A stretch of DNA of 64,000 bases from a virus (taxonomy: Duplodnaviria > Caudoviricetes), in the IMG/VR virus record IMGVR_UViG_3300042350_003801; one strand, 5' to 3'. Made by a program: the position numbers and the translations under genes. This document shows, one piece after another, positions 59,951 to 63,666 of the stretch. Numbering within the stretch: position 1 is the stretch's first letter; each line of letters begins with the position of its first letter. The notes under the pieces were generated by a model. That model was not told the DNA's origin, made no database searches, and worked only from the letters and a program-made list of their open reading frames with translations.

Positions 59951-60424
59951 TCACCCCACCCAGGCATTATCTCCGGCGAGAATCCTGAAGCGTTCGGCAA
60001 TATCCTCAACCGAATCGTAGGTCAACTCATCGAGACTCCTTTCTTCGGGTTCAAAAGTAGCAGGATCGGCGGTAATACCTGCAGCACGGTTAGCAATAAG
60101 ACGCTCAATACGAGCCTCAATGCTAGGTTCAGCCAGTTTCGTTTCAATGTATGCATCAATGGCTTTTTCGATCTCGGCCTTAACCTGTCTGGCAACACCG
60201 TTAACAATAACGGTTGAACCCATCCGACTTACAATACGTCGGCAAATTTCATTAGTGCGATCATCTTGGCCAAGAACATTGGCAAACATTTCTTCAAGAT
60301 GTTCATCGGTGAGAACAAGTTCCTTACGAGACCGAATCTCTTCTGTAAGGAGTTCTAGACCAACGAGTAGATTGTCAAGTGTAACGAGTTTGCCAGCAAC
60401 GGTGACTTTAGTTGGAGAAGACAT
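59951..60424 (-). CDS. Helical unknown protein, last gene of the ubiquitin-like operon
   Basis: Starts 8 nt after the E1 stop; coiled-coil-like. Confidence 0.75.
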   Translation of the reverse strand: MSSPTKVTVAGKLVTLDNLLVGLELLTEEIRSRKELVLTDEHLEEMFANVLGQDDRTNEICRRIVSRMGSTVIVNGVARQVKAEIEKAIDAYIETKLAEPSIEARIERLIANRAAGITADPATFEPEERSLDELTYDSVEDIAERFRILAGDNAWVG

Positions 60425-60432
60425 AATTGATT

Positions 60433-61137
60433 TCAGGAAGCAGAGGTTTTGAGGTTACGAACGTTGAAATAGAAGCCAGACTTATTGGCTTCTAATTTTT
60501 CATCCAGGAGGTTTTGAATCACCGCCAACGTAGCAGCGGCTGCCATAAAGTTGGCGGCGATAAGTTGCGGGCGAGACTCTTGAAGTCTGGCACAACTACC
60601 GGCGCGAGGAATTTCATCTTCCGGTTGGCTAATGTTGGGAACAACATCTTTTGGATTCATTCCAACATTCTCTCCATTGATGCGACCAAACCAAAGTGTT
60701 TGACCGCGAACTTCTTCAATACCATCACTGTTACCAGGAGTAATAAAGAAAAAGTCTTTGTCGGTGCAGGTAAGCATAATGGCATCAATTACAGCGGCGC
60801 GGGTTGCATCGTTATCAACCGCTGCAATAATCAGTGGAGACTCACTTTCCTCCAGGAAAGGAACAAAAGATGCCATCGTGATGTACTCACCAAATGCATT
60901 AACATTAGTGAGACCCATTGCACTACACATCTCAGCCATTGCATCAGCCTTATTTTGACCAACGTGATCCGGTGTCATAAACTGACGACTCTGATTCTTA
61001 TTCTCAAAGTCATCACCATCAATAATCGTAACCATATTGTCACGAGTCGCCGGATGATACTGAAGGGTTTTAACAAGAGGTGGAATAAGATACCCACCGG
61101 TACCGCCAGTTCCGATCACAAAAGTCTTATCAAACAT
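60433..61137 (-). CDS. ThiF/E1-family ubiquitin-like activating enzyme
   Basis: VIGTGGTGG, IDGDDFENKNQSRQ, GQNKA, AVDN, candidate catalytic Cys in GSCA; no Zn CxxC pairs. Confidence 0.92.
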   Translation of the reverse strand: MFDKTFVIGTGGTGGYLIPPLVKTLQYHPATRDNMVTIIDGDDFENKNQSRQFMTPDHVGQNKADAMAEMCSAMGLTNVNAFGEYITMASFVPFLEESESPLIIAAVDNDATRAAVIDAIMLTCTDKDFFFITPGNSDGIEEVRGQTLWFGRINGENVGMNPKDVVPNISQPEDEIPRAGSCARLQESRPQLIAANFMAAAATLAVIQNLLDEKLEANKSGFYFNVRNLKTSAS

Positions 61138-61210
61138 AAAGAAGAAGAGGGGTGAAGGACAAATGAATCATAGGGCAAAGATTGCCCCTAGGATGAAGAA
61201 GTGGACGGTT

Positions 61211-62122
61211 TCACAACTGTCCAATAAGTTCTCCATTTTTGGTCACAAACCATTCTTTTTCACAAGAATCAGGCATCGTAAGATAACCATGATAGCTAAC
61301 TCCTTCGTGCTCAAGAACTGTTTCACGAAGAGGAAGAAGCATCATATAATTAGCCTCTTTAATGGGCTTAAATCCCGCCGAAATCATCCAGAAAAATGCA
61401 GAGATGTTATCTTCGGCATGGAGCATAAAGAGAGCATCTGCTTTTTCTGCAATGAACTTATAGTTCTGGGCATAGGTCTTAAAGAAGTTATCTGTGGCAA
61501 TATCATTTTTAACAATCTCATTATTCCGCACGAAATCGTGAATCTTGGTGAGATCGTTATTAAAGGGACTATCAAAAAACAACTTCACCATACTTTTAAG
61601 CGACTTTGGCCGCTCATTTCCTCCCCAACAAATAGCATGTGAACTATGAGTATTCGCAAGATGCTTACGTTGTTTGGAAAATTTAATCCTATTTTTAACA
61701 ACTTGGGTTGCCTGAAGGAATGCTTTCTGGTATTCATTAGTTGCCTGAAACCGTTTGTCGCGAGACTTAATATCTAGACTCAGTTGAAAAACAGTAGGAG
61801 CAACATCAAATTTTACTTTATTTGGTTCAGGAACTGCTAGACCTTTGGGGCATACACTTTCCGGGCCAAATCCGCTCTCTTGAACCGGATCACACCGACG
61901 ATTATTAACGTGTCTACAAGAATAACAGTTGTCTCTAAAAAATATATCATAAAGGCCGAGAGAATTGGGATTTACTTGGTCAACCTTGGAAAAGTTGTCC
62001 TCCATATGTGCCGCTAGAAATAGCCGGTCAGTTGTGAAGGTGTACGAAATTGCCGTTGTTTGAGTAGGAAGAAGATGAAGATTCCCCTTTGCGGGGGAGT
62101 CGGAAAAAATAACTGAATTCAT
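61211..62122 (-). CDS. Prokaryotic E2-like conjugating enzyme (PRTRC protein B / Prok-E2_D-like)
   Basis: LANTHSSHAICWGGN...FFDSPFNNDL; ICWG Cys sits at the E2 active-site position. Confidence 0.72.
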   Translation of the reverse strand: MNSVIFSDSPAKGNLHLLPTQTTAISYTFTTDRLFLAAHMEDNFSKVDQVNPNSLGLYDIFFRDNCYSCRHVNNRRCDPVQESGFGPESVCPKGLAVPEPNKVKFDVAPTVFQLSLDIKSRDKRFQATNEYQKAFLQATQVVKNRIKFSKQRKHLANTHSSHAICWGGNERPKSLKSMVKLFFDSPFNNDLTKIHDFVRNNEIVKNDIATDNFFKTYAQNYKFIAEKADALFMLHAEDNISAFFWMISAGFKPIKEANYMMLLPLRETVLEHEGVSYHGYLTMPDSCEKEWFVTKNGELIGQL

Positions 62123-62207
62123 TACGGTTTAACGGGTTAAGTGATCATTTTAAGTATAGGGGCAAAACTTGCCCCGTTCTACTATCGGTGTGCCAGTTCA
62201 ACGGCTG

Positions 62208-63320
62208 TCACGAAGACAACTCAATTTCAACTCCAATAAGAAAAGCAGCAAGTTGTTGCTTCATTTCATCAAGAGCATCCGAATCATTACGATTCTGCTT
62301 TAGATAATCCTCGAGCAAGTCAATAATGGGATAAATGTCTTCGGCGATTGGAACATCATTGGTAGTTTCAGTTACGTCAATAATTCCATCACTAAAGTAG
62401 AACGGATCGCTACACTTATCTTGCCAAGTATCACGATATTCCCAACTGTATTCAGAGTCTTCCCCATCATTGACGCCATAACTGTGGCTACAATACTCTT
62501 GATAAGAATTGTAAGTCTTTTTGGTTACAGGATTTTGCCTTGCTGGGGGAAGTTTCTTGAGAATGTTGCTCGTTGCAGCACGAACAGCCCGGCCACCATT
62601 GAAACCATAGGTAGCAGGAGTAGAGAAGTCAACATACTTGAGTACATTCTCGTGAAAGGTTACACCTTCTATGGGAGTTGCATCAATTAGATTATCATAA
62701 TGAAGTTTGAAGCGGCGATTGTTACCAGTAACACTGGCAGCAATTTCATACTTCATAGTCTTGGTATTAATCTTACCCACAGTAAGATGAATTCCAGGAT
62801 CGCCTAGCTCGTACTTATCATCAACGCCTGAGAAGAAGGCATTCATCGTATTATGCGAGTGGCTAGAACCTACAGGAACCCACCCTTCAGGAGGATAAGA
62901 CGTAAATTCTTCGCCAGTAACAAGGTCAACACACTCATCAAAGTTATCAGCCTTGACGCTTGCGGCTGTTACTTTTTGTTTGGGAACAACTGCACGATAT
63001 TGAGAAGGATTGGAAGCATTACGCAAGAAGCGAACAGATACTTCCATCTGTGAAGGAACCTTGTCTACAAAGTAGAAACAAAGTTTAATCCAACGGGACC
63101 AAAGATCGGCCGGAACGCGATGAATATCTTCCCTAACTTCAAAATACTCAAGAATTTCTTTAGTAAGGTCAAAGTTAGCCTCGGGGTCTGAGCAAGGGCG
63201 CAAGTAACTAACCCACGGACCTTTATAGACTTCCCAGGTTCCATCATCCGGTGTTCGTAGAATAGAAGGTGGAGCTTCAACCACGGGAGATTCTTCAATT
63301 GTGAGAGTTTCTTCGGTCAT
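62208..63320 (-). CDS. JAB/MPN+ metallo-isopeptidase (PRTRC protein A-like) with an acidic tail
   Basis: MEV..., VPKQKVT..SV, SHSH.TMNAFFSGVDD (JAMM HxH..S..D), GIHLTVGKI. Confidence 0.85.
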   Translation of the reverse strand: MTEETLTIEESPVVEAPPSILRTPDDGTWEVYKGPWVSYLRPCSDPEANFDLTKEILEYFEVREDIHRVPADLWSRWIKLCFYFVDKVPSQMEVSVRFLRNASNPSQYRAVVPKQKVTAASVKADNFDECVDLVTGEEFTSYPPEGWVPVGSSHSHNTMNAFFSGVDDKYELGDPGIHLTVGKINTKTMKYEIAASVTGNNRRFKLHYDNLIDATPIEGVTFHENVLKYVDFSTPATYGFNGGRAVRAATSNILKKLPPARQNPVTKKTYNSYQEYCSHSYGVNDGEDSEYSWEYRDTWQDKCSDPFYFSDGIIDVTETTNDVPIAEDIYPIIDLLEDYLKQNRNDSDALDEMKQQLAAFLIGVEIELSS

Positions 63321-63335
63321 AATGTAGTAGGAAAG

Positions 63336-63381
63336 AAAAAACCCGCCCAGTCATTGAAAACAACCGGGCGGGCAGGATTCA
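63336..63381 (-). terminator. Intrinsic terminator between Ubl and JAB
   Basis: CCCGCCCGG...CTGGGCGGG followed by a T-run on the minus strand. Confidence 0.7.
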
Positions 63382-63396
63382 AGAGAGCTGAAGAAA

Positions 63397-63666
63397 TCAG
63401 GCGGCGCCTTTGCCTTCAGCTTTGATTACACCACGGACGGTTTCACCGGGACGGACTTGGGTAGGGCCAGGCACTTCAACGTTGTTGATAGCGAAGGTGC
63501 GAACGCGAGTAACGTCGCTGATAAGACGATGGCCGTACTCACCGAACAGTTGGGAAACGGTCTTGCCATTGTACTGTTCAAAGGTGAGAGCCAGTTCTTC
63601 CTCGTTCACCACAAGGGTAACGGCGGCGCTGGTATCTTGTTGGCGGAGGTTATCGTAGAAAGACAT
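63397..63666 (-). CDS. Ubiquitin-like (beta-grasp) modifier ending EGKGAA
   Basis: 89 aa; first gene of an E1/E2/JAB operon; TV..L...F.INN.EV.....VRPGETV strand pattern; near-terminal Gly. Confidence 0.72.
   Translation of the reverse strand: MSFYDNLRQQDTSAAVTLVVNEEELALTFEQYNGKTVSQLFGEYGHRLISDVTRVRTFAINNVEVPGPTQVRPGETVRGVIKAEGKGAA

Follow-up and report, generated by a model that had tools for sequence, protein, structure and literature searches.

A conserved phage-borne gene cassette for putative ubiquitin-like protein conjugation in large lake-water phages

The DNA analysed here is a stretch of 64,000 nucleotides from the virus record IMGVR_UViG_3300042350_003801 (Caudoviricetes), which as a whole is referred to as the window. 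At positions 59951-63666 it contains five co-oriented open reading frames (ORFs) on the minus strand that encode proteins of 89, 370, 303, 234 and 157 aa in transcription order (Table 1). A sequence-only reading had proposed that they form a complete set for ubiquitin-like protein (Ubl) conjugation, related to the PRTRC cassettes and made up of Ubl, JAB peptidase, E2 and E1 together with a fifth gene, and this proposal holds for every part that can be tested computationally. All five ORFs were found where they had been described, and the motifs quoted for the JAB, E2-like and E1 proteins are present and conserved in alignments of homologues. Purifying selection acts on all five genes, the pairwise ratios of nonsynonymous to synonymous substitution rates (dN/dS) against two diverged relatives being 0.10-0.25, computed at dS values of about 1 or more. 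The five-gene order is kept in related phage contigs of 111-250 kb from lake metagenomes; among them, loci L001-L008 reside on contigs of 111-243 kb and on shorter fragments. Four distant phage contigs that were examined keep the core, that is a small ORF (88-119 aa) and genes for a protein of 344-381 aa, an E2-like protein and a ThiF protein; one distant core-bearing contig has a homologue of T4 gp2. As far as can be judged from sequence, the cassette is confirmed to be real, conserved, selected, owned by the phage and, by its residues, catalytically intact.

Table 1. Features of the cassette and of the remaining window
Feature	Position in window	Strand	Basis or remark
Ubl precursor, 89 aa	63397..63666	-	beta-grasp model and structure matches
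JAMM/JAB metallopeptidase, 370 aa	62208..63320	-	invariant JAMM motif
E2-like conjugating enzyme, 303 aa	61211..62122	-	UBC-like model, invariant Asn157/Cys165
Minimal single-domain ThiF-type E1, 234 aa	60433..61137	-	Pfam ThiF above cut-off
Fifth gene, 157 aa, candidate adaptor or regulator	59951..60424	-	conserved position after E1 gene
Terminator-like GC-rich hairpin and T-run	63331..63373	-	between tag and JAB genes
Terminator-like hairpin after gene 5	59883..59915	-	14-bp stem
T4-type terminase ATPase, UvrD-like helicase, CCA-adding enzyme, homing endonucleases, TnpB element	elsewhere in window		

The first gene of the cassette encodes a protein of 89 aa, hereafter termed the tag, for which AlphaFold2 (AF2) predicts a beta-beta-alpha-beta-beta-beta topology, i.e. 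a beta-grasp, with a predicted local distance difference test score (pLDDT) of 76. Beta-grasp proteins make up all of the 50 best Foldseek matches as well as all of the 50 best VIA-align rows, and they include MoaD, which is the top Foldseek match, ubiquitin, SUMO, NEDD8, ISG15 and archaeal SAMP1. Model and matches thus agree in assigning the fold that had been suggested for this protein. The highest Z value reached in the structure search is 7.8, and BilA (chain 8tyz_B) is matched with Z 6.7 and a root-mean-square deviation of 2.7 A over 73 aligned residues. Comparison of the tag profile with PDB sequences returned nothing meaningful. The tag (dN/dS 0.19-0.20) terminates in E-G-K-G87 followed by Ala-Ala (GKGAA). 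Across divergent loci K86-G87 is conserved in the tag family, while the tail behind it reads AA, NA, A, SL or F or is lacking altogether. At the level of sequence, such a Lys-Gly with 0-2 variable residues marks the protein as a precursor that a peptidase would trim.

A candidate for this peptidase is encoded by the second gene. In the JAB protein, some 130 aa form an N-terminal domain and some 180 aa a C-terminal extension. Its JAMM signature, E93 and H154-x-H156-x7-S164-x2-D167, is invariant in nine phage homologues, aligned from lake phages, Vibrio phage D69, Salmonella phage Arash and Bacillus phage WH1; the N-terminal region ahead of the motif (93-167) features an invariant Pro70 and an IPADLW motif. 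Pfam Prok-JAB is matched at 2.4e-4, below its cut-off, and NCBIfam PRTRC_A at 7.9e-5 with 22.3 bits versus a cut-off of 101.8, the aligned part comprising the region of the catalytic motif only. Distant JAB homologues likewise stay below the PRTRC_A cut-off. In the Atlas, viral clusters lie nearest, and PRTRC system protein A comes next (0.92). In some relatives the JAB gene is interrupted exactly between the HSH and the NTM of the catalytic motif. Rfam classes the 284-nt insert at L003:6958-7241 as a group I intron with 54.8 bits, which exceeds the gathering score, and since the insert is preceded by T and its last base is G, splicing restores the reading frame. A longer insert with a 346-aa LAGLIDADG ORF is present at L001:2969-4185 and in L002, and the gene is split as well at L004:973-1185. 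The uninterrupted allele occurs in the window, in L005 and in L006.

The 303-aa E2-like protein was modelled by AF2 from an alignment of 67 sequences with a pLDDT of 93.5. The model consists of a UBC-like core (residues ~15-220), a Cys4 insert and a beta-rich C-terminal domain (~228-303), with a four-stranded meander (14-17, 22-29, 33-40 and 46-50) and, behind it, Cys165 placed in a loop before helix 175-184. Three independent structure searches with this model agree in direction. In an exhaustive VIA-align search, E2/UBC, UEV or RWD chains occupy 32 of the 34 leading rows, with Z values of 4.7-2.8 and about 100-110 residues aligned over model positions 15-210; the other two rows are a kinetochore Mis12 subunit and the Fts-Hook3 complex. 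The best shape match in the Atlas is a cluster with Prok-E2_D in 77% of its members (template modelling score, TM, 0.39; 158 residues aligned), and the AFDB clusters found include an entry named UBC core domain and one for PRTRC system protein B, with a probability of ~0.95. Six residues, N157, C165, W166, G167, N188 and D190, are invariant in all 67 sequences, and the cysteines of the Cys4 cluster (C66, C69, C77, C91) are present in 55-58 of the 67, the rest being gaps. Canonical E2 enzymes possess an HPN...C loop, in which the Asn is located eight residues before the catalytic Cys. Asn157 precedes Cys165 by the same eight residues; the residue before Asn157 is Ala or Leu, not His-Pro, and a His at the position of H235 is found in 16 of the 67 sequences. 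By profile comparison, the family has an N..C..PFNNDL core in common with a Prok-E2_D-like protein of Vibrio phage D69 (E value 7.3e-5).

With respect to its distribution, the close E2-like family forms 21 clusters at 90% identity, all of which are metagenomic. A profile search of 1.8 billion representative proteins yielded 80 relatives, 30 of them below 1e-30. Ten were looked up and, save for one spurious plant hit, stem from metagenomes only, on contigs of up to 258 kb. Neither single-protein nor alignment queries recovered a relative of the narrow family from IMG/VR or from GTDB species genomes, and the family profile matched nothing meaningful among PDB sequences. The position of the 303-aa gene is constant, between those for JAB and E1. 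A separate E3 is not visible in the cassette.

The E1 protein matches Pfam ThiF above the cut-off (2.7e-11), and the ThiF domain stands alone in its 234 aa. The best NCBIfam model is PRTRC_ThiF (TIGR03736; 6.8e-13, 48.5 bits versus a cut-off of 144.75), which aligns at full length, covering residues 6-213 of the E1. The nucleotide-binding glycines (GTGGTGG), D108, R113 and C182, the latter in a G-S/T-C-A motif that reads G-S-C-A in the window, are invariant and also present in the E1 proteins of Vibrio phage D69 and Bacillus phage WH1, and dN/dS is as low as 0.10-0.12. As judged by length and domain content, this is an enzyme of the ThiF/MoeB size class and not a multi-domain E1 of the Bil kind. 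Full-length relatives with 26-30% identity are encoded on large plasmids, the one from Rubrobacter adjoining an MPN/JAB gene. Bacillus phage vB_BceM_WH1 (L012, 180020-188685), in which a ThiF gene stands between the gene for a 460-aa protein that matches JAB weakly, on its upstream side, and a NADAR gene, represents another, differently built phage E1-JAB neighbourhood.

Several observations weigh against a conjugation system. The tag ends in Lys-Gly and not in Gly-Gly, and its homologues matched no NCBIfam model, PRTRC_C included. The E2 assignment is the weakest link by score (Z of at most 4.7, TM of 0.39, and Pfam Prok-E2_D at 0.0076, below cut-off); when the E2-like model was compared with PDB by Foldseek, only noise was returned (TM ~0.13), a fold signal emerging only from the all-against-all VIA-align search and from the Atlas, and none of the 67 family members matched PRTRC_B. 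Furthermore, E1- and E2-like proteins of the Bub systems can use non-canonical chemistry (PMC11601596), so a thioester relay cannot be assumed for the phage enzymes. Targets and timing, finally, are argued only from the gene neighbourhood and a missing promoter motif (see below).

If conjugation does not take place at all, the cassette could operate a sulfur carrier of the ThiS/MoaD type or another acyl-adenylate pathway, or the 303-aa protein might not be an E2. ThiF-type E1, beta-grasp protein and JAB also occur in sulfur-transfer operons (Iyer 2006). MoaD leads the Foldseek matches of the tag, and the scores of the E2-like protein as an E2 are weak. However, no gene for a rhodanese, cysteine synthase, ThiG, MoaE or a sulfurtransferase is present in any locus examined, the Lys-Gly of the tag is capped, and the E2-like family combines an invariant Asn-x7-Cys in a UBC-like model with an unvarying place between the JAB and E1 genes. 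We consider this explanation highly improbable; the sequence-only reading had set conjugation against sulfur transfer, and the lack of sulfur-carrier partners at the loci favours the former.

A different question is whom the enzymes serve. Based on the same enzymology, the cassette could act in competition between viruses, tagging structural proteins of co-infecting phages as an exclusion or defence module. Of the Ubl-E1-E2-JAB systems characterised so far, only the Bil systems have a target that is known, and they act in this way, tagging phage tail proteins (cited in PMC11601596). The cassette is situated in a variable accessory region together with homing endonucleases and TnpB elements, and its distribution is patchy: an E1 homologue is detectable in 8 of 50,697 deposited phage genomes and a JAB homologue in three, with Vibrio phages D69, D181 and D148 matching both queries. 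On the other hand, when the cassette proteins were compared with the PADLOC models, only generic E1 models responded. The E1 matched the E1 region of Cap2 at 1.6e-6 and BilD at 0.0058 over 88 residues only, and neither BilA nor BilB nor BilC was matched by the Ubl, JAB and E2-like proteins. The E1 is without the domain architecture of its Bil counterpart, defence regulators (CapH/CapP, WYL) are not among the neighbours, and nothing links the cassette to foreign virion proteins. A role in exclusion appears unlikely.

The fifth gene follows the E1 gene throughout L001-L008 and is conserved by selection (dN/dS 0.19-0.25). Its 157-aa product has no family match in Pfam, NCBIfam, PHROGs or PADLOC, and its Atlas model is poor (pLDDT 0.54); the N-terminal ~105 aa can still be recognised in three distant loci, L009, L014 and L015. 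PHROGs likewise offers no family for four of the five cassette proteins.

Two terminator-like hairpins structure the cassette. The one between the tag and JAB genes has a 15-bp stem with eight G-C pairs and is followed by a T-run. A hairpin with T-run is present at the same site in L002, L003, L004, L006, L009 and L011 and, weaker, in L014. As the stem sequences differ between lineages, it is the hairpin structure and not its sequence that is conserved. Strong hairpins after gene 5 also occur in L001, L003 and L005. This arrangement suggests that the genes form a single transcription unit in which part of the transcripts end behind the tag gene, which would provide more tag than enzymes. Early-type promoters, which had been proposed for the cassette, are unsupported: a sigma-70 scan revealed neither a coding-strand promoter upstream of the tag gene nor an excess of promoters over shuffled sequences, and the only backing for early expression is the absence of the T4-type late motif from the region. 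Elsewhere in the window this motif, ATAAATA, immediately precedes structural genes, and there is none in 51-64 kb. Directly upstream of the tag gene, at window positions 63735-64000, a 102-nt unit without Rfam match occurs about three times in tandem, the two full copies sharing 79% identity, and Rfam identified no known RNA in 59500-64000.

The neighbourhood is non-structural. The cassette is embedded in a block of small non-structural genes, and the gene for a CCA-adding enzyme lies in the same arm. In the related contigs it resides beside RNA-repair genes (RNA ligase, polynucleotide kinase/phosphatase). Upstream in L001-L008 are genes for an RNA ligase, an AAA_33 kinase and a Metallophos phosphatase, and downstream there are many small ORFs. 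In the window, a run of paralogous genes is located directly downstream of the cassette (57812-59596, minus strand); their common ends include NFWW and ATYEL.GMHTLL..LFVPLF, and their middles are hypervariable Ala-rich four-residue repeats. More copies are found in L003 and L007.

These surroundings bear on the possibility that the phage modifies its own proteins, for instance during virion assembly or maturation, in a manner analogous to the lambdoid Ubl-JAB pair TAPI/TAPK. A pairing of Ubl and JAB is known from phage tail assembly (Iyer 2006), and E2_D-like and ThiF homologues of Salmonella phage Arash have been detected by mass spectrometry in phage preparations (PMC10585845). Yet a long distance separates the cassette from the structural genes, it carries no late-promoter motif, and the lambdoid systems are without E1 or E2. 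The structural proteome of Arash also lists ribonucleotide reductases and RNA ligases (PMC10585845). We therefore rejected the label 'structural protein' as a sign of packaging into the virion, as a list that includes metabolic enzymes indicates expression rather than residence in the particle. Self-modification is accordingly regarded as quite unlikely.

An additional gene was found outside the window. L007 shares 4050 identical bases with the window and continues beyond the window end, where a 215-aa protein is encoded at L007:8272-8919 (402-1049 bases past the end). Its C-terminal 72 aa are 42% identical to the tag (E value 1e-16) and end exactly at the equivalent glycine. It may be that in the genome to which the window belongs a cargo domain is conjugated by the same enzymes by way of this fusion. 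The fusion gene is absent from L003 and L005. For the N-terminal part only a weak paralogue was found, at window 49853..50245; comparison showed that this part does not belong to the Ala-rich paralogues that lie downstream of the cassette.

The window itself is DNA of a T4-like myovirus, as is evident from genes for the gp6 baseplate wedge, terminase and UvrD helicase. Its gp6 matches the respective PHROG at 1.8e-192, and the best tblastn matches are from Synechococcus and Prochlorococcus myoviruses (55% identity). These nearest phage relatives suggest that the host may be a cyanobacterium; the sequence-only reading had treated the virus as a cyanophage, which the nearest phages as sole basis do not establish. 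The phage is uncultured, large and from lake water. An identical copy of the E2-like protein is encoded on a contig of 250,336 bp, and the stretch is nearly complete (at least 94% of sampled words) in lake-water metagenome runs from seven separate studies. Among deposited phages blastn found no related genome, and the search of sequencing runs returned no RNA run containing the stretch.

Two further arrangements in the window deserve mention. A 3554-aa ORF with a YHYH domain (634-11298, minus strand) adjoins the gp6 baseplate gene and probably encodes a giant tail-fibre or baseplate-associated protein. In the region 19478-22983 (minus strand), only a 312-aa ORF (20132-21070) matches the terminase large subunit, namely its N-terminal ATPase domain. 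It is flanked by ORFs of 197, 181 and 130 aa without Pfam match. Nearby are an ORF that resembles HNH/HTH endonucleases and a TnpB gene (17751-19361). The terminase may be split or interrupted.

Taken together, we think it likely that the phage owns a Ubl cassette in which a JAB-matured tag travels from Cys182 of E1 to Cys165 of the E2-like protein and from there to lysines of target proteins. We infer every chemical step, as well as the class of targets. The 89-aa beta-grasp protein would be made as a precursor, probably in excess in view of the terminator-like hairpin behind its gene. The JAMM peptidase would then remove the two C-terminal alanines and expose Gly87. The minimal ThiF-type E1, probably a homodimer, would adenylate this glycine and take over the tag as a thioester on Cys182, after which the tag would pass to Cys165 of the E2-like protein and be transferred to target lysines. 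As no separate E3 is visible, the choice of substrates could lie with the Cys4 insert or the C-terminal beta domain of the E2-like protein or with the fifth protein. It is conceivable that the JAB enzyme also reverses conjugation. As targets we prefer host proteins or other proteins of early infection, modified for takeover of the cell or for counter-defence. This is our first choice because of the non-structural context, the neighbouring RNA-repair genes and the missing late motif. More broadly, and tentatively, it is quite possible that large lytic phages run a Ubl modification of their own while infecting, covalently tagging proteins of the host or of rival phages by means of a minimal E1, an E2 with a zinc module and a substrate domain and no E3. 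In the genome of the window, such a system would in addition attach an entire cargo domain of 140 aa by way of the second Ubl, the fusion that stops at the reactive glycine.

To our knowledge, experimental evidence of bacterial Ubl conjugation exists only for anti-phage systems that the host encodes, i.e. Cap2 of the anti-phage signalling system based on cyclic oligonucleotides (CBASS), Bil and Bub. We found no description of a complete phage-owned Ubl/E1/E2 cassette in the literature. The conserved cassette suggests that bacterial viruses also use protein tagging; if this is true, it would be the first virus-side Ubl conjugation system in the bacterial world and a mirror image of the host's Bil defence. 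The occurrence of homologous cassettes in cultured phages of Vibrio and Salmonella makes both the function of the operon class and its role in the conflict of phage and host testable, and for work on mechanisms the family provides a very small E1 as well as an E2 whose accessory domains are built in.

Among known systems, the ThiS/MoaD pathways differ by the Gly-Gly C-terminus of their carriers, as compared with the capped Lys-Gly of the tag. Bub and type II CBASS (Cap2/Cap3) resemble the cassette in being prokaryotic conjugation machineries of E1, E2 and peptidase. However, in Cap2 an E2 is fused to an E1, its substrate is a cyclase and a free Ubl is lacking, and the Bub E1 is fused to a peptidase and devoid of a catalytic Cys (PMC11601596); neither architecture is found here. 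The BilABCD systems (type I and type II Bil) possess separate Ubl, E2, JAB and E1 proteins, and the JAB of type II Bil cleaves after a conserved glycine of the Ubl, thereby removing a short non-conserved tail (PMC10557695) like that of the tag. The Bil E1, on the other hand, comprises two adenylation domains, one inactive and one active, together with a mobile Cys domain (IAD-AAD-CYS; PMC10557695), in contrast to the single ThiF domain of the phage enzyme. Moreover, the gene order is Ubl-E2-JAB-E1 in Bil and Ubl-JAB-E2-E1 here, and Bil is host-encoded and defensive.

Other phages provide a further point of comparison. In Vibrio phage D69 and Salmonella phage Arash, the neighbourhoods contain an unannotated cassette of a small ORF and genes for E2_D-like, JAB and ThiF proteins. 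These cassettes are likewise phage-borne, in myovirus genomes of 180-187 kb, and their JAB and E1 proteins share the invariant residues. They differ in the order E2-JAB-E1, in a sequence identity of only 20-30%, in the lack of a homologue of the fifth gene and in shorter E2-like proteins (229-251 aa) without Cys4 insert or C-terminal domain. Their small upstream ORF has no terminal Gly; the 95-aa ORF of phage D69 was considered as a tag and rejected because it gave no alignment with the Ubl and lacks this residue.

The closest known kind of system is operon class 6d, which we take to be the PRTRC cassette of NCBIfam (TIGR03735-03742), found on plasmids and integrative and conjugative elements (ICEs). 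We know of no function for this class, which has been known from mobile elements since 2006. Row 6d in Table 1 of Iyer 2006 lists five parts, Ubl, JAB, E1, E2 and an uncharacterised alpha-helical protein, the JAB having an extra N-terminal domain and the E2 an absolutely conserved His downstream of the Cys in place of the classical His. The same composition in separate genes is encountered in the phage cassette, which features a stand-alone beta-grasp Ubl with a conserved C-terminal glycine, a separate JAB with an additional N-terminal domain, a single-domain ThiF E1 of the ~240-aa size without rhodanese, and an E2-like protein that retains the Cys and lacks the His of the HPN motif. The counterpart of the helical partner, which in class 6d carries charged residues that are conserved, would be the conserved fifth gene, with its family-less product and low Atlas pLDDT. 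The downstream His of the 6d E2 is not conserved here (H235), and the Cys4 insert and the extra C-terminal domain set the phage E2-like protein apart. Although all scores are far below the curated cut-offs and PRTRC_B and PRTRC_C went undetected, the best NCBIfam matches of E1 and JAB are PRTRC_ThiF and PRTRC_A, and PRTRC proteins A and B and Prok-E2_D are among the Atlas and AFDB neighbours. Genes for other PRTRC components were not found, including ParB, which was checked in the Pfam hits of neighbouring genes in L001-L015, and the carriers are lytic-type T4-like phages rather than plasmids or ICEs. We conclude that the cassette is a distant, PRTRC-like phage branch of class 6d, and what is new here is the phage-borne form of a known but functionally unexplored operon class.

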